Source of the DNA: a virus
Taxonomy: Duplodnaviria; Heunggongvirae; Uroviricota; Caudoviricetes
Virus record (IMG/VR): IMGVR_UViG_2534682256_000009
Strand: one strand, 5' to 3'
DNA: 4,824 nucleotides
Position numbers and translations under genes: made by a program. The notes beneath the pieces were generated by a model that did no database searches, was not told where the DNA came from, and saw only the letters and a program-made list of their open reading frames with translations. How positions within the stretch are numbered: the first letter of the stretch is position 1; each line of letters begins with the position of its first letter. Below are positions 1 to 4,510 of this stretch, piece after piece.

Positions 1-215
1 AACGTGACGGACGTAACCACCGCGACATGTGCGTGCTGTTCCGCTGGGCATGCCAGGACAACTTCTGGTCCGGTAACGTGCTAAGTCCGGCCAAACTCCG
101 CGACAAGTGGACCCAGCTCGAAATCAACCGTAACAAGCAACAGGCAGGCATGATAGCCAGCAAACCAAAACTCGACCTGACAAACACTGACTGGATTTAC
201 GGGGTGGATTTATGA
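1..215 (+). CDS. O: Lambda-type replication initiator protein O, C-terminal fragment (5' end lies upstream of the window; first complete in-frame codon starts at nt 3)
   Basis: Frame is open from the window edge (no stop between nt 3 and the TGA at 213-215). The C-terminal peptide ...KPKLDLTNTDWIYGVDL matches my recollection of the lambda O C-terminus. The stop overlaps the next ATG in an ATGA arrangement, as in lambda O/P. Sampled 60-bp window 1-60 is about 62% GC. Confidence 0.82.
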   Translation, partial: RDGRNHRDMCVLFRWACQDNFWSGNVLSPAKLRDKWTQLEINRNKQQAGMIASKPKLDLTNTDWIYGVDL

Positions 216-913
216 AAAACATCGCCGCACAGATGGTTAACTTTGACCGTGAGCAGATGCGTCGGATCGCCAACAACATGCCGGAACAGTACGACGAAAA
301 GCCGCAGGTACAGCAGGTAGCGCAGATCATCAACGGTGTGTTCAGCCAGTTACTGGCAACTTTCCCGGCGAGTCTGGCTAACCGTGACCAGAACGAACTG
401 AACGAAATCCGCCGCCAGTGGGTTCTGGCTTTCCGGGAAAACGGGATCACCACAATGGAACAGGTTAACGCAGGAATGCGCGTAGCCCGTCGGCAGAATC
501 GACCATTTCTGCCATCACCCGGGCAGTTTGTTGCATGGTGCCGGGAAGAAGCATCCGTTATCGCCGGACTGCCAAACGTCAGCGAGCTGGTTGATATGGT
601 TTACGAGTATTGCCGGAAGCGTGGCCTGTATCCGGATGCAGAGTCTTATCCGTGGAAATCGAACGCGCATTACTGGTTGGTTACCAACTTGTACCAGAAC
701 ATGCGGGCCAATGCGCTGACTGACGCGGAATTACGGCGCAAGGCTGCCGATGAACTGACCTGTATGACAGCGCGAATTAACCGTGGTGAGACGATACCTG
801 AACCAGTAAAACAACTTCCTGTTATGGGCGGTAGACCTCTAAATCGTGCACAGGCTCTGGCGAAGATCGCAGAAATTAAAGCTAAGTTCGGACTGAAAGG
901 AGCAAGTGTATGA
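212..913 (+). CDS. P: Lambda-type replication protein P (DnaB helicase loader), full length 233 aa
   Basis: 233-aa ORF beginning MKNIAAQMVNFDREQMRRIANNMPEQYDEKPQVQQVAQIINGVF, recognised as lambda P by sequence recollection, and the length matches lambda P. ATGA overlap with O upstream and with ren downstream; GGGGTGG-like SD upstream. Confidence 0.9.
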   Translation: MKNIAAQMVNFDREQMRRIANNMPEQYDEKPQVQQVAQIINGVFSQLLATFPASLANRDQNELNEIRRQWVLAFRENGITTMEQVNAGMRVARRQNRPFLPSPGQFVAWCREEASVIAGLPNVSELVDMVYEYCRKRGLYPDAESYPWKSNAHYWLVTNLYQNMRANALTDAELRRKAADELTCMTARINRGETIPEPVKQLPVMGGRPLNRAQALAKIAEIKAKFGLKGASV

Positions 914-1212
914 CGGGCAAAGAGGCAATTATTCATTACCTGGGGACGCATAAGAGCTTCTGTGCACAGGACGTTGCCGCGGTAACAGGTGCAACCGTAA
1001 CCAGCATAAATCAGGCTGCGGCTAAAATGGCGCGGGCAGGAATCCTGGTCGTTGATGGTAAGGTCTGGCGAACGGTGTATTACCGGTTCGCTACCAGAGA
1101 AGAACGGGAAGGAAAGGTGAGCACGAATCTGATTTTTAAGGAGTGTCGCCAGAGTGCCGCGATGAAACGGGTATTGAGGGTATATAAAAGAACATCAATG
1201 GGTACACAATGA
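910..1212 (+). CDS. ren: Ren-like protein (lambda ren homologue), 100 aa; extreme C-terminus may be altered by the downstream insertion
   Basis: ORF starts MTGKEAIIHYLGTH...VTSINQAAAKMARAG...VWRTVYYRFATREEREGK, recognised as lambda Ren. ATGA overlap with the P stop (910-913) and an AAGGAG SD upstream. Lambda ren is 96 aa by my recollection, whereas this ORF is 100 aa and ends where composition shifts. Confidence 0.8.
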   Translation: MTGKEAIIHYLGTHKSFCAQDVAAVTGATVTSINQAAAKMARAGILVVDGKVWRTVYYRFATREEREGKVSTNLIFKECRQSAAMKRVLRVYKRTSMGTQ

Positions 1213-1229
1213 TGAAACAGGTGAGTTGA

Positions 1230-1264
1230 GTTCAAACTGTAGTACAATTCTCTCCAGTTTGAAC
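1230..1264. repeat. Perfect 10-bp inverted repeat GTTCAAACTG-N15-CAGTTTGAAC at the left composition junction, 16 bp upstream of the emrE start
   Basis: Read directly: gttcaaactg (1230-1239) and its exact reverse complement cagtttgaac (1255-1264), separated by a 15-nt spacer tagtacaattctctc that contains a TACAAT hexamer (1243-1248). Confidence 0.7.
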
Positions 1265-1279
1265 AGGAAAGAATATGTT

Positions 1280-1612
1280 ATGAACCCTTATATTTATCTT
1301 GGTGGTGCAATACTTGCAGAGGTCATTGGTACAACCTTAATGAAGTTTTCAGAAGGTTTTACACGGTTATGGCCATCTGTTGGTACAATTATTTGTTATT
1401 GTGCATCATTCTGGTTATTAGCTCAGACGCTGGCTTATATTCCTACAGGGATTGCTTATGCTATCTGGTCAGGAGTCGGTATTGTCCTGATTAGCTTACT
1501 ATCATGGGGGTTTTTCGGCCAACGGCTGGACCTGCCAGCCGTTATAGGCATGATGTTGATTTGTGCCGGTGTGTTGGTTATTAATTTATTGTCACGAAGC
1601 ACACCACATTAA
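1280..1612 (+). CDS. emrE: EmrE, small multidrug resistance (SMR) family efflux transporter, 110 aa
   Basis: Translation from ATG 1280 is MNPYIYLGGAILAEVIGTTLMKFSEGFTRLWPSVGTIICYCASFWLLAQTLAYIPTGIAYAIWSGVGIVLISLLSWGFFGQRLDLPAVIGMMLICAGVLVINLLSRSTPH, recognised as E. coli EmrE with the membrane-embedded Glu in the first helix. AGGA SD about 10 nt upstream. The longer 128-aa ORF in the track starts at an upstream TTG (1226) and is not the likely start. Confidence 0.93.
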   Translation: MNPYIYLGGAILAEVIGTTLMKFSEGFTRLWPSVGTIICYCASFWLLAQTLAYIPTGIAYAIWSGVGIVLISLLSWGFFGQRLDLPAVIGMMLICAGVLVINLLSRSTPH

Positions 1613-1641
1613 AAATAATTTCTTTTAAAAGACTGCAATAT

Positions 1642-1675
1642 GGCGGTTCATATCTTTACATGGGCCGCTTTTGTT
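1642..1675 (+). terminator. Candidate intrinsic terminator downstream of emrE
   Basis: Imperfect hairpin 1642-1650 / 1661-1669 (core GCGG/CCGC plus A-U, C-G and wobble pairs, 10-nt loop) followed by TTTTGTT, about 30 nt after the emrE stop. Stability not computed. Confidence 0.4.
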
Positions 1676-1856
1676 AATGTTTTTAGTTTTTGTGTATTCT
1701 TTTGTGCCTTCAAGATTATTGCGTAAGCAAATTGCAATACGATTATTGTTGTATATTCAAGATAGTGTGATCGTAATTGTCTTTTTAAATAAAAATTAAA
1801 CAAAAATTATATCTCACCACTAAGGTTTATAAAAGCATAAGTTAGCAGGTGTCACC

Positions 1857-3383
1857 ATGAAAAAAGCCATAGCATATATGCGATTTTCATCACCAGGTCA
1901 GATGTCTGGCGACTCATTAAACCGACAGAGAAGACTTATTGCTGAATGGTTAAAGGTAAATAGTGATTATTATCTTGATACCATAACATATGAAGATTTA
2001 GGATTAAGTGCATTCAAAGGAAAGCATGCACAATCAGGAGCTTTTTCGGAATTTTTAGATGCTATAGAGCATGGTTATATATTGCCAGGAACTACATTGT
2101 TAGTTGAAAGTCTGGACAGACTTTCAAGAGAAAAAGTCGGTGAAGCGATTGAACGTCTGAAATTGATTTTGAATCACGGTATTGATGTTATAACTCTTTG
2201 CGACAATACAGTCTATAATATTGACTCTTTGAATGAGCCATATTCATTAATAAAAGCCATACTTATAGCACAAAGGGCAAATGAAGAAAGCGAGATAAAG
2301 TCAAGTCGGGTTAAATTATCATGGAAGAAAAAACGGCAGGATGCACTGGAATCAGGTACGATTATGACGGCGTCTTGTCCGAGATGGCTCTCCTTAGATG
2401 ACAAAAGAACGGCTTTTGTTCCAGACCCCGACAGGGTGAAAACTATTGAGCTAATTTTTAAACTCAGGATGGAAAGGCGCTCATTGAATGCAATAGCCAA
2501 GTATTTAAATGATCATGCTGTAAAGAATTTCTCAGGAAAAGAAAGTGCATGGGGGCCTTCTGTAATTGAAAAATTATTAGCGAATAAAGCTCTGATAGGT
2601 ATATGCGTACCTTCATATCGTGCAAGAGGGAAAGGGATAAGTGAAATCGCTGGCTATTATCCCAGAGTCATATCAGATGATTTGTTTTACGCTGTACAGG
2701 AAATTCGGTTGGCACCTTTTGGTATTAGCAATAGTAGCAAGAATCCTATGCTAATAAATCTACTTCGAACAGTTATGAAGTGTGAGGCTTGTGGTAATAC
2801 CATGATTGTTCATGCGGTATCTGGAAGTTTGCATGGCTATTATGTTTGTCCGATGAGAAGATTACATCGATGTGACAGGCCATCAATAAAGAGAGATTTG
2901 GTTGATTATAATATCATTAATGAATTGCTTTTTAATTGTAGCAAAATTCAACCAGTTGAAAACAAGAAAGATGCTAATGAAACTTTAGAGTTAAAAATTA
3001 TTGAGCTTCAGATGAAAATTAATAATTTAATCGTTGCATTGTCTGTCGCGCCTGAAGTTACCGCTATAGCAGAGAAAATAAGACTATTAGATAAGGAATT
3101 ACGAAGAGCTTTGGTATCATTGAAAACTTTGAAGAGTAAAGGTGTAAATTCATTCAGTGATTTTTATGCTATTGACTTAACCAGTAAAAATGGACGAGAG
3201 TTATGCCGTACACTTGCCTATAAAATATTCGAAAAAATCATAATTAATACGGATAATAAAACCTGTGATATCTATTTTATGAATGGCATTGTTTTTAAAC
3301 ACTATCCTTTAATGAAAGTAATATCCGCCCAGCAGGCGATAAGTGCTCTCAAATATATGGTTGATGGTGAGGTTTATTTTTGA
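1857..3383 (+). CDS. ybcK: Large serine recombinase (resolvase/invertase catalytic domain, recombinase domain, zinc ribbon, coiled coil), 508 aa; corresponds to DLP12 ybcK
   Basis: N-terminus AIAYMRFSSPGQ...SLNRQ aligns with the resolvase catalytic motif YxRVSTxxQ (putative nucleophile Ser11). ESLDRLSRE matches the conserved DRLxR motif. C-terminal half has a Cys cluster KCEACGN...YYVCPMRRLHRCD and a predicted coiled-coil stretch. AGGTG SD 5 nt before the ATG. Strongly AT-rich codon usage. Confidence 0.9.
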   Translation: MKKAIAYMRFSSPGQMSGDSLNRQRRLIAEWLKVNSDYYLDTITYEDLGLSAFKGKHAQSGAFSEFLDAIEHGYILPGTTLLVESLDRLSREKVGEAIERLKLILNHGIDVITLCDNTVYNIDSLNEPYSLIKAILIAQRANEESEIKSSRVKLSWKKKRQDALESGTIMTASCPRWLSLDDKRTAFVPDPDRVKTIELIFKLRMERRSLNAIAKYLNDHAVKNFSGKESAWGPSVIEKLLANKALIGICVPSYRARGKGISEIAGYYPRVISDDLFYAVQEIRLAPFGISNSSKNPMLINLLRTVMKCEACGNTMIVHAVSGSLHGYYVCPMRRLHRCDRPSIKRDLVDYNIINELLFNCSKIQPVENKKDANETLELKIIELQMKINNLIVALSVAPEVTAIAEKIRLLDKELRRALVSLKTLKSKGVNSFSDFYAIDLTSKNGRELCRTLAYKIFEKIIINTDNKTCDIYFMNGIVFKHYPLMKVISAQQAISALKYMVDGEVYF

Positions 3384-3736
3384 GTAATAATCACTTTTTC
3401 AACCGTGCTATGGTATGAAAGTAAAGTAACTACTATGATATTAACTATCGAGCAAGAATATCCCCAGGCACTCAACAGGGCGCAGGTCAACGTGAATCGG
3501 TCATGACACGACACCGATTTTGCGGAATCAATGTTGCTTATGAATACAACATCCCGCTTAGTACATGTTCAACACATCAGCAAATTTTGAACTGGGTGTG
3601 GCACTTAACTGAAAAAACATGGATGACACAAAATGTTACTCGTCGCTTCATTGAAGTAGCTTGTGGATATCACAAGCTAGACTATCGCCAATGATATTCA
3701 ATTTTTGATTTTTTAGTATCAACCTTCCATAATAAT

Positions 3737-3765
3737 GTCACCGGAGCTTGAACAACTCCGGTGAC
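3737..3765. repeat. Perfect 10-bp stem hairpin GTCACCGGAG-N9-CTCCGGTGAC; function unknown (RNA structure, protein-binding site or recombination site)
   Basis: Read directly: gtcaccggag (3737-3746), loop cttgaacaa, ctccggtgac (3756-3765). Followed by ttctgcgcattt, not a clean U-tract. Lies about 25 bp upstream of the ylcH-like start. Confidence 0.6.
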
Positions 3766-3789
3766 TTCTGCGCATTTAAGGGGACTTAA

Positions 3790-3888
3790 ATGCGACCACA
3801 ATCTGAACTCCTTACCTTGTCACAGATGCAGAAATGCACCTGCGATGTCTTGCATCCAGCGTTTGATCTCTGCGGAGGTGAAGCGTGA
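3790..3888 (+). CDS. ylcH: Small ORF (32 aa) translationally coupled to the downstream gene; ylcH-like
   Basis: ATG at 3790 preceded by an AAGGGGA SD. Encodes [32 protein letters not shown]. Its TGA (3886-3888) overlaps the GTG start of the next gene (GTGA). Position matches the small ylcH gene upstream of ybcN in DLP12 by recollection. Not in the supplied ORF track, presumably because of its size. Confidence 0.45.
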
Positions 3889-4340
3889 ACCTCCCACAAG
3901 ATGGCATCAAATTACATCGCGGTAACTTCACCGCTGTCGGTCAGCAGATCCAGACTTATCTGGAAGACGGCAAATGCTTTCGCATGGTGCTTAAACCGTG
4001 GCGCGAGAGACGCAGTCTTTCCCAGAATGCACTCAGCCACATGTGGTACAGCGAAATCAGTGAATACCTCATCAGCAGGGGGAAATCGTTCGCTACTTCA
4101 GCATGGGTAAAAGATGCTCTCAAACACACATACCTCGGTTATGAAACCAAGGACCTGGTTGATGTCGTAACCGGCGAAATCACTACTATCCAGTCGTTAC
4201 GCCATACCTCCGATCTTGGTACCGGAGAGATGTATGTCTTCCTGTGTAAGGTTGAAGCCTGGGCGATGAATATTGGCTGCCACCTGACTATTCCACAGAG
4301 CTGCGAGTTCCAGCTGCTGCGTGACAAGCAGGAGGCGTAA
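3885..4340 (+). CDS. ybcN: YbcN-like nin-region protein, 151 aa (DLP12 ybcN, reported as a DNA base-flipping protein)
   Basis: 151-aa ORF with GTG start and a strong GGAGGTG SD 6 nt upstream. Length and position (before ninE) match DLP12 ybcN. Stop TAA overlaps the ninE ATG (TAATG). Confidence 0.78.
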
Positions 4341-4510
4341 TGGCTACACCGCTTATTCGTGTCATGAACGGACACATCTACAAAGTACCAAATCGTCGTA
4401 AGCGTAAACCTGAGCTGAAGCCATCCGAAATACCAACACTGCTCGGATATACCGCCAGCCTGGTTGATAAAAAATGGTTGCGACTGGCAGCAAGGAGGAA
4501 TCATGGCTGA
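4340..4510 (+). CDS. ninE: NinE-like protein, 56 aa
   Basis: Translation [56 protein letters not shown], recognised as the DLP12/lambdoid NinE family. AGGAGG SD 5 nt upstream. Not in the ORF track, presumably because of its size. Confidence 0.8.
   Translation: MATPLIRVMNGHIYKVPNRRKRKPELKPSEIPTLLGYTASLVDKKWLRLAARRNHG

Follow-up and report, generated by a model that had tools for sequence, protein, structure and literature searches.

What does a perfect G+C-rich hairpin do at the head of a prophage nin operon, in the slot where phage lambda carries the terminator tR2, when no clean run of U residues follows it? We have analyzed this question for a DNA stretch of 4,824 nucleotides (nt), IMG/VR record IMGVR_UViG_2534682256_000009, referred to here as the window. 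The whole stretch is a lambdoid prophage segment with 100% identity to Escherichia coli O157:H7 chromosomes, and the hairpin, H1, lies just upstream of the genes ylcH, ybcN, ninE and ybcO (Table 1). An earlier interpretation made from the letters alone (the sequence-only reading) had proposed a regulatory RNA structure, a leaky terminator, a protein-binding palindrome or part of a recombinase site. The part of it that stands is a conserved, non-canonical RNA structure in a terminator slot; the DNA palindrome and the recombinase site do not. H1 is an evolutionarily conserved stem-loop of + strand RNA; in E. coli K-12 its left arm contains a transcription start, and RNA 3' ends cluster just beyond the hairpin. 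Its most likely role is that of a gate on the expression of prophage recombination genes.

Structure and conservation of H1

The arms of H1, GTCACCGGAG (3737-3746) and CTCCGGTGAC (3756-3765), are 100% complementary, with 7 G-C pairs among the 10 and a 9-nt spacer, as the sequence-only reading had described them. The folding calculation that it proposed gives -17.1 kcal/mol for the 29-mer as RNA (z = -5.7); 200 dinucleotide shuffles had a mean of -5.2 and none was as stable. The 4824 nt contain just three perfect inverted repeats whose stems reach 10 bp or more and whose arms are no more than 20 nt apart; two of these are adjacent (3737-3765 and 3771-3794). By our own estimate, about 0.05 perfect 10-bp repeats with a loop of 3-12 nt are expected by chance per 4.8 kb.

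H1 is not a canonical intrinsic terminator, and on this point the sequence-only reading was right. The stem has the 5-14 bp and the high G+C content of such terminators (10 bp with 7 G-C pairs; -10.6 kcal/mol for the 7-bp form described below). In the K-12 orthologue alone, 3' ends are seen at the usual 7-9 nt past the stem, a distance that does not separate termination from trimming. The loop, with 9 nt and an invariant core, is not the short unconstrained loop of 3-8 nt, and 3 U in the 8-nt tail compare with at least 5 in 8 after a canonical stem. The sequence that follows the hairpin, TTCTGCGC, does not form a U-run; the 10-bp form is followed by UUCUGCGC and the 7-bp form by GACUUCUG. This tail, (G)ACTTCTGCGC, is nearly invariant among homologues. 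A terminator scan left H1 uncalled on the + strand; on the - strand it was called with G.T pairs counted (12 pairs, loop of 5, tail ATTATTATGG). A - strand terminator or antisense hairpin as the selected form was rejected, since the G.U wobbles of the + strand would be A.C on the - strand.

Homologues were gathered through a 25-nt anchor inside ylcH, which avoids bias, and comprise 122 loci with 81 distinct leaders. Covariation and loop counts refer to 49 distinct E. coli-type sequences, whose selection made no use of the loop. Around one loop we find at least 8 different stem sequences, each with a matching right arm; they include GTCACCGGAG, GTCATCGGAG, TCTGCCAGcGG, GTCGCAGTCGG, TTGCTGACGG, GCCGCCGG and GTCTTGCCGTCGG. 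The loop core is YUGA(A/G)C, and its letters U, G, A and C are invariant in all 49 sequences. The loop measures 9 nt, or 7 nt in some variants, and stem length across the family ranges from 5 to 13 bp. That the loop is invariant and not the arms had gone unnoticed in the sequence-only reading.

The MAFFT alignments set two stem-length classes out of register, which the covariance model did not correct, and pairing was recounted in an ungapped register centred on the loop. In this register 75.7% of cells are paired, against at most 47% with the partner slid; the covariation score is 0.54 against at most 0.23, and none of 300 column shuffles reaches it. The model-fitted alignment gives 70.4% paired against at most 54% (0 of 500 shuffles), a figure that is understated because one stem class is out of register. 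The arms compensate for each other's changes across lambdoid homologues, and H1 is a conserved RNA structure.

The wobble pairs identify the strand. In pairs 5-12 there are 56 G.U-type cells and 6 A.C cells, and the RNAalifold table counts 86 and 4, respectively. The commonest variant, GTCATCGGAG/CTCCGGTGAC, is an imperfect palindrome as DNA and a perfect helix as RNA, by virtue of U.G pairing on the + strand only. Because the wobbles are G.U on the + strand, H1 is a + strand RNA structure; its - strand copy is degraded by A.C mismatches, with - strand energies slightly better for some perfect variants. Covariance model R1 places one copy at each locus, always on the ylcH strand. No Rfam family covers H1: at E values up to 10, the only match was a spurious snoRNA elsewhere. 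An upstream mini-open reading frame (ORF) running through the hairpin (GGAG-N1-UUG/CUG...) was discarded, as its Shine-Dalgarno (SD) spacing is 1 nt and its frame and stop differ between 82-type and HK639-type leaders.

A distant class of leaders is found in Klebsiella phages, whose similarity at the DNA level is limited to the 3' part of ylcH. A promoter-like TTGCAT-17-GATAAT precedes a hairpin of the form GUCAG-[Y]CUGRRCAA-CUGAC, with 5-7 bp, -5 to -8.5 kcal/mol and no U tract, the first stem base of which is the predicted start as judged from the -10 position. The E. coli hairpin corresponds to the Klebsiella hairpin with five inner base pairs added. From this comparison, conservation reaches deepest in the loop and in the 5'-terminal position, and the long G+C-rich stem is confined to E. 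coli-type leaders.

Promoter, transcription start and RNA 3' ends

H1 belongs to a conserved stretch of about 90 bp of non-coding DNA. Lambdoid phages of Escherichia, Enterobacter, Lelliottia and Klebsiella have this block at the head of the nin module of the phage-82/DLP12 type (ylcH-ybcN-ninE-ybcO). The block consists, in order, of a sigma-70-like promoter, H1, the nearly invariant tail (G)ACUUCUGCGC, a second hairpin (H2) and ylcH. In more than 100 IMG/VR contigs the sequence 5' of TTGAT is unrelated and the 3' side is a single conserved block, whose first bases are the -35 element. The promoter scan gives TTGATT-17-CATAAT, a 9 of 12 match to the sigma-70 type, and among the unrelated upstream sequences a -10-like hexamer (TATAAT, AATAAT or GATAAT) stands at an equal distance from the stem. 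The inverted repeat that overlaps the -35 element and the spacer looks operator-like from its sequence; phi80 and L047 have TTGATA/TATCAA in place of it, and another type of upstream sequence contains TGATAATCATT, similar to a Fur box.

The orthologue of H1 in K-12 is NC_000913.3 572316-572344. Kim et al. (2012; PMC3415461, Table S1) mapped a K-12 transcription start site (TSS) for ylcH to NC_000913.2 571542 on the + strand, which is 572319 in version 3, with 247 reads, similar to talB or carA in the same data, and a 5' untranslated region (UTR) of 49 nt. Their 51-mer ends ...CATAATTATGTCA, the last base being the TSS. This base is the A of GTCA, the fourth of the left arm and 7 nt past the -10 element. 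The Cappable-seq tables, the text of which may be incomplete, contained no matching coordinate. The nin-leader promoter is real, and its start within the left arm is a further feature that was absent from the sequence-only reading.

Since the TSS falls inside the left arm, the operon's own transcript starts with a shortened hairpin. In K-12 it begins ACCGGAG... and folds into a 5'-terminal hairpin of 7 bp (-10.6 kcal/mol; 3740-3762 in the window) that leaves no free 5' nucleotide. The full 10-bp H1 is formed only in read-through RNA.

RNA 3' ends were curated by Adams et al. (2021; PMC7815308, Supplementary files 1 and 3) at 572349 and 572350 on the + strand, in two of three growth-condition sheets, taken from their position in the file to be the second and third. 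They are classed as 'orphan', 19 nt 5' of ylcH. The K-12 ends read ...GGUGACUUCUG(C) and correspond to +31 and +32, which is 8-9 nt past the 7-bp stem (8 nt separate the 7-bp hairpin from the 3' end) and 5-6 nt past the 10-bp stem. Up to 574366 the same list (PMC7815308) gives no further 3' end on the + strand, and it places no region of Rho termination near the K-12 leader. By eye, the K-12 tail at 572339-572349 matches the elemental pause consensus, G(-10)...Y(-1)G(+1); the U stands at 572348 and the G at 572349, and the mapped 3' ends follow 1-2 nt later. The sequence-only reading had proposed 3' end mapping and a check of both arms for covariation; as the arms covary and 3' ends lie just past the hairpin, neither of the outcomes that it named as adverse, arms without conservation and a lack of associated 3' ends or expression change, was found.

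The second hairpin, H2, follows 5 nt past H1. It has the ylcH Shine-Dalgarno sequence in its 5' arm and loop, and the AUG (3790-3792) in its 3' arm. H2 also covaries, with at least 4 stem versions around a constant GGGA loop, and the phi80 record annotates it as IR4. The Klebsiella analogue, GCGCCA-AGUGGGGACACA-UGGCGC, has its SD within the loop and its AUG within the 3' arm. When the operon's own transcript is folded, H2 is at least as stable as H1, and no 3' end is reported after it. The absence of 3' ends past an equally stable hairpin argues against simple exonuclease trimming as the source of the ends past H1.

A proposed attenuating leader and its alternatives

We consider the best explanation, to which we give somewhat less than an even chance, to be attenuation: H1, a promoter-proximal hairpin in the leader, would reduce entry into the nin operon through weak termination. 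This explanation is based on an active promoter, a stable 5' hairpin, mapped 3' ends confined to +31/+32, none of them after H2, and a poorly expressed operon. Poor expression in K-12 despite the active promoter follows from the mapped TSS together with Curtis et al. (2014), who note that rusA, 1 kb downstream, needs a promoter supplied by an insertion sequence (IS) for adequate expression.

According to this explanation H1 would act in cis, as a stem-loop within the leader RNA of the nin operon of the phage-82/DLP12 type (ylcH-ybcN-ninE-ybcO-rusA...Q). The promoter fires at the fourth left-arm base and yields a 5'-terminal G+C-rich hairpin of 7 bp with no free 5' tail. Many transcripts end 8-9 nt past the 7-bp hairpin, at +31/+32, where the hairpin and the conserved GACUUCUG tail would serve as a weak non-canonical terminator or a pause-release site. 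RNA reading through from upstream, from pR or from island genes such as ybcM, would fold a hairpin of 10-13 bp and present the same barrier. The nin/Q operon would be nearly silent unless RNA polymerase were termination-resistant, and H1 would be the functional counterpart of lambda tR2. H2, by hiding the ylcH ribosome-binding site (RBS), would impose an added translational block. In this scheme the 3' ends would arise by termination, H1 would presumably be sensitive to antitermination, and the O157 copy is expected from its sequence to behave like the K-12 copy.

Several observations weigh against attenuation. With 3 U in the 8-nt tail and a 9-nt loop, canonical termination should be inefficient, and the + strand terminator scan made no call at H1. 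The Klebsiella version has a short stem and no U tract, and termination is therefore not a feature conserved throughout the family. Termination leaves the invariant YUGA(A/G)C loop unexplained. The Term-seq counts are low, about 1,600-1,900 reads, and exonuclease stalling likewise leaves 3' ends 5-9 nt past a stable stem. Some loci already have a canonical terminator just 5' of the -35 element; such terminators occur within 150 nt of it in about 7 of 99 distinct contexts, a count that does not settle the question. The start and 3' end data come from the K-12 copy and extend to the O157 copy by homology only. Our confidence in attenuation is kept below even by the U-poor tail, the low Term-seq counts and the fact that a 5' cap with an exonuclease stop explains the same ends.

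This last possibility amounts to an RNA stability element, which we regard as rather doubtful. H1 would cap the 5' end of the mRNA, leaving no single-stranded end for RppH or for the 5'-end-dependent action of RNase E, and the +31/+32 ends would be dead-ends of decay, formed where 3' exonucleases stall at the stem. The mapped TSS is indeed the first paired base of the 7-bp stem, the predicted Klebsiella start is likewise the first stem base (again from the -10 position), and evolution has kept the structure without keeping the stem sequence. A 3' end 8-9 nt past a stem matches the stalling distances known for PNPase and RNase II, and Adams et al. (2021; PMC7815308) assign most non-terminator 3' ends to processing. 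A stabilizer alone does not, however, predict poor expression from an active promoter, or the lack of 3' ends after the equally stable H2. Nor does it account for the loop invariance, or for covarying pairs that extend 3-6 bp 5' of the start, where they are useless to the operon's own transcript. A further alternative is a recognition hairpin, in which the stem presents the invariant loop to a conserved partner. Candidate partners would be a protein of the host or the phage, an RNA or, as for the put RNA of HK022, RNA polymerase. Binding would then switch the leader, for example by opening H2 for ylcH/ybcN translation or by suppressing the +31 stop. The C/U-U-G-A/G at the 5' side of the loop is invariant and conforms to Y-U-N-R, the U-turn-type motif reportedly defined by Franch and co-workers in 1999. 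The loop stays fixed while the stem varies from 5 to 13 bp, the motif persists (as YCUGRRCAA) in Klebsiella phages despite a stem of 5-7 bp, and H1 stands 5 nt before a hairpin that sequesters the RBS. Nevertheless we think this role unlikely. A search of the same strand from -3 to +4 kb, which did not include trans-encoded partners, revealed no conserved complementary GUUCA; there is no Rfam family and no boxA nearby, and the loop could be constrained as DNA, at +8 to +16 of the promoter. The module accompanies many types of immunity and antitermination (N phages, the put phage HK639 and phi80), so that any phage partner would need to be encoded in the module. YlcH itself was considered as a CCHC zinc-knuckle RNA binder and dropped, since its Cys-x-Cys is not conserved in the Klebsiella homologues. 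Combining these elements, H1 and H2 could represent an undescribed class of phage cis-regulatory leader RNA, in which the invariant YUGRRCA loop of a 5'-terminal hairpin is read by a conserved host or module factor or by RNA polymerase. The nin/Q operon would thereby alternate between attenuation, with a stop at +31, and read-through with translation; we offer this as a speculation with a small chance of being correct. On the sequence evidence the invariant loop may be a factor-binding site.

The two DNA-level possibilities raised by the sequence-only reading fare worse. A double-stranded DNA operator for a dimeric regulator, overlapping +1, was anticipated in the GenBank record of phage 82 (1996), in which the promoter is called putative and the 29-bp repeat a 'possible regulator-binding site'. 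The palindrome does overlap the transcription start, and its bottom pairs, GTCA...TGAC, are common to the E. coli and Klebsiella classes at spacings that differ by 10 bp. The pattern of conservation is the opposite of that of an operator: the arms vary with complementarity kept and the asymmetric centre is conserved, the commonest variant is imperfect as a DNA palindrome and perfect as an RNA helix, and the wobbles are strand-biased, 56 against 6. We judge an operator very improbable. An att or crossover site of the large serine recombinase YbcK, at the right end of the emrE-ybcK island, seems hardly credible, even though the low-G+C island has its right junction about 35 bp away. The hairpin belongs to the lambdoid backbone: phages 82, HK639 and phi80, Klebsiella phages and many IMG/VR contigs carry it but lack the island; in K-12, ybcL and ybcM separate ybcK from it; and the 9-bp spacer offers no central dinucleotide. 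Variable arms, a fixed centre, strand-biased wobbles and presence in phages that lack ybcK are the grounds on which both the operator and the recombinase site were rejected.

Comparison with known systems

The placement of H1 in a lambdoid terminator region, as the sequence-only reading had it, is borne out by comparison with lambda tR2. Both lie between ren and ninB at the head of the module, just 5' of the ribosome-binding site that begins it (that of ninB in lambda), and both are G+C-rich stem-loops on the rightward transcript. The tR2 element, AGGCCUGC-N7-GCAGGCCU-UUUUUAUUU, has an 8-bp stem and a 7-nt loop and is a canonical terminator, whereas H1 has an invariant 9-nt loop, the UUCUGCGC tail and a promoter start inside its stem. 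There is no sequence homology between H1 and tR2, and lambda AGGCCTGCtggtaatcGCAGGCCTTTTTATTT is unrelated. The lambda-type and 82-type leaders are separate conserved blocks, of which the lambda block is likewise joined to varied upstream genes. H1 thus occupies the tR2 slot of another ninB module, one that is not homologous to that of lambda. Lambda-type ninB modules (L179 1084-1164, equivalent to lambda 40583-40663, and L301-L380) begin with an unannotated hydrophobic ORF of 26 codons (MTIYITELITGLLVIAGLFIWGRGKS). The tR2 element lies within this ORF, which is translationally coupled to ninB, with a stop that overlaps the ninB ATG, in parallel with ylcH before ybcN.

As a 5' UTR element with premature 3' ends, the K-12 orthologue is among the sites curated by Term-seq, 31-32 nt after the mapped TSS; it was not individually analyzed there and carries no Rho or intrinsic-terminator score (Adams et al. 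2021, PMC7815308). H1 resembles ompA-type 5' stem-loops in that the stem begins at the first transcribed nucleotide, in K-12 and by homology in the window. Stem-loops of the ompA type have no loop-sequence requirement and belong to long-lived, well-expressed mRNAs, unlike the poorly expressed nin operon of K-12.

As a small phage RNA hairpin with a conserved purine-rich loop, H1 is also reminiscent of the boxB of nut sites, and CCUGAACAA resembles lambda boxB CCCUGAAAAAGGG. It differs from boxB in having a stem of 10-13 bp and a 9-nt loop instead of 5 bp and a pentaloop, and the U-A pair needed to close a GAACA pentaloop lacks conservation, position 22 being A or C. No boxA (YGCUCUUWA) was found within 3400-4100 with 1 mismatch allowed. 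A nut site was rejected for the lack of boxA and of a conserved pentaloop closure. The element occurs in phages of many immunity types, among them HK639, which uses put RNAs instead of N. The put RNA of HK022/HK639 forms two stem-loops immediately after the promoter (PMC9378689), and its likeness to the leader is confined to that position and to the two-hairpin layout. It differs in its length of about 70 nt, its internal bulges, its triple helix and the absence of an RBS, where the H2 of the leader holds the SD and the AUG. A put RNA is further defined by binding to the RNA polymerase beta' zinc-binding domain and by conferring read-through. No relation to put was seen in sequence or in Rfam, although Rfam may hold no put model and the HK022 RefSeq entry has no put annotation. 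That rusA is poorly expressed in K-12 speaks against antitermination built into the leader. A comparable layout is that of com/mom in phage Mu, where a recognition hairpin stands directly 5' of a second hairpin that sequesters the RBS and the start codon, and Com opens the mom mRNA hairpin for translation. The leader differs in that no Com-like protein was identified and there is no sequence similarity.

Full-text searches on ylcH/ybcN regulation found nothing specific and no functional study, and papers on the prophage small RNAs Pas and HnrS make no mention of the nin region. What is already known is that the repeat was noted in 1996 and that the start and the 3' end stand unremarked in genome-wide tables. 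The start inside the palindrome and the sequence-invariant loop are unusual for a leader stem-loop or attenuator.

Genomic setting

The features of the window are collected in Table 1. The gene order matches that of the cryptic prophage DLP12 of K-12, which has an extra ybcL-ybcM between ybcK and ylcH. Homology to phages 82, HK639 and phi80 and to Enterobacter and Klebsiella phages starts abruptly at about 3703; H1 lies 34 nt inside this boundary and 25 nt 5' of the ylcH ATG (3790).

Table 1. Coordinates of the leader elements and genes in the window
Feature	Position	Strand	Remarks
Replication gene P	212-913		
ren-like ORF	910-1212		
emrE	1280-1612		in low-G+C island
ybcK, large serine recombinase	1857-3383		in low-G+C island
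ORF of 63 amino acids	3503-3694		unannotated
-35 element TTGATT	3705-3710	+	promoter scan; nearly invariant in 81 homologues; putative -35 in phage 82 (X92588)
Inverted repeat TTGAT-N8-ATCAA	3705-3722		overlaps -35 and spacer; arms nearly invariant, spacer variable (alignment A2)
-10 element CATAAT	3728-3733	+	promoter scan and alignment
Hairpin H1	3737-3765	+	arms 3737-3746 and 3756-3765; loop 3747-3755 (CUUGAACAA)
Predicted transcription start, A	3740	+	fourth left-arm base; homology with mapped K-12 start
Conserved tail UUCUGC	3766-3771	+	3770/3771 are counterparts of the K-12 RNA 3' ends
Hairpin H2, CGCAUUUAAG-GGGA-CUUAAAUGCG	3771-3794	+	perfect 10-bp stem; 5 nt past H1
ylcH/orf33, 32 amino acids	3790-3888	+	stop overlaps GTG start of ybcN (GTGA)
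ybcN, NinB/Orf relative	3885-4340	+	first large operon gene; weak Pfam NinB match and annotation
ninE	4340-4510		
ybcO	4503 onward		

The module with its leader is widespread: 1813 of 5426 complete E. coli genomes match. It is also found in Klebsiella and Enterobacter phages and in prophage-like regions of Lelliottia and Huaxiibacter genomes. A contig scan of genomes with a loose pattern returned mostly chance matches, 3 of 120 being genuine (Lelliottia, Enterobacter and Huaxiibacter). Some viral contigs contain two copies of the leader 2.3-4 kb apart (L117 at 506-539 and 2969-3002; L110; L101; L090, with a copy at 6847-6880), with a truncated ylcH and foreign genes after the first copy. Extra DNA has apparently been inserted with the conserved leader as recombination joint.

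The region 1213-3703, which holds emrE, ybcK and the 63-amino-acid ORF, is an island of low G+C (0.31-0.42, against about 0.50 in the flanks) and constitutes an insertion between ren and the nin leader. Its O157-type right junction is common to about 307 complete E. coli genomes. Just 3' of emrE, at 1642-1669, stands a terminator of canonical appearance, GGCGGTTCA...GGGCCGCT with TTTGTT after it. Perfect inverted repeats occur within ybcK (TTGAAAGTCTG/CAGACTTTCAA, 2104-2127) and near the end of the 63-amino-acid ORF, close to the right junction of the island (TAGCTTGTG/CACAAGCTA, 3657-3679).

Within ylcH, a 25-nt stretch (TCACAGATGCAGAAATGCACCTGCG; window 3823-3842) is invariant in four aligned phages and exact in more than 120 viral contigs. 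This conservation at the DNA level looks high for an ORF of 32 codons with a variable 5' half. The stretch can fold as CAGAUGCA-GAAA-UGCACCUG, a hairpin with a GNRA tetraloop and one A.C mismatch. The start region of ybcN (3871-3891) forms the hairpin GGAGGU-GAAGCGUGA-ACCUCC, with the SD in the 5' arm and the GUG start in the loop. This arrangement suggests that ybcN may be translationally coupled to ylcH.

Biological significance

The module lies upstream of the recombination genes ninB/orf and rusA and of the late antiterminator Q, which in Shiga-toxin phages controls the toxin and lysis genes. A gate at H1 could partly account for the silence of rusA in K-12 without an IS promoter, despite a moderately active promoter about 1 kb upstream. 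The invariant loop provides a handle on a possible new RNA-binding partner. If true, the reading of the leader as an RNA switch would cover many lambdoid prophages, including DLP12 of K-12 and several prophages of O157.

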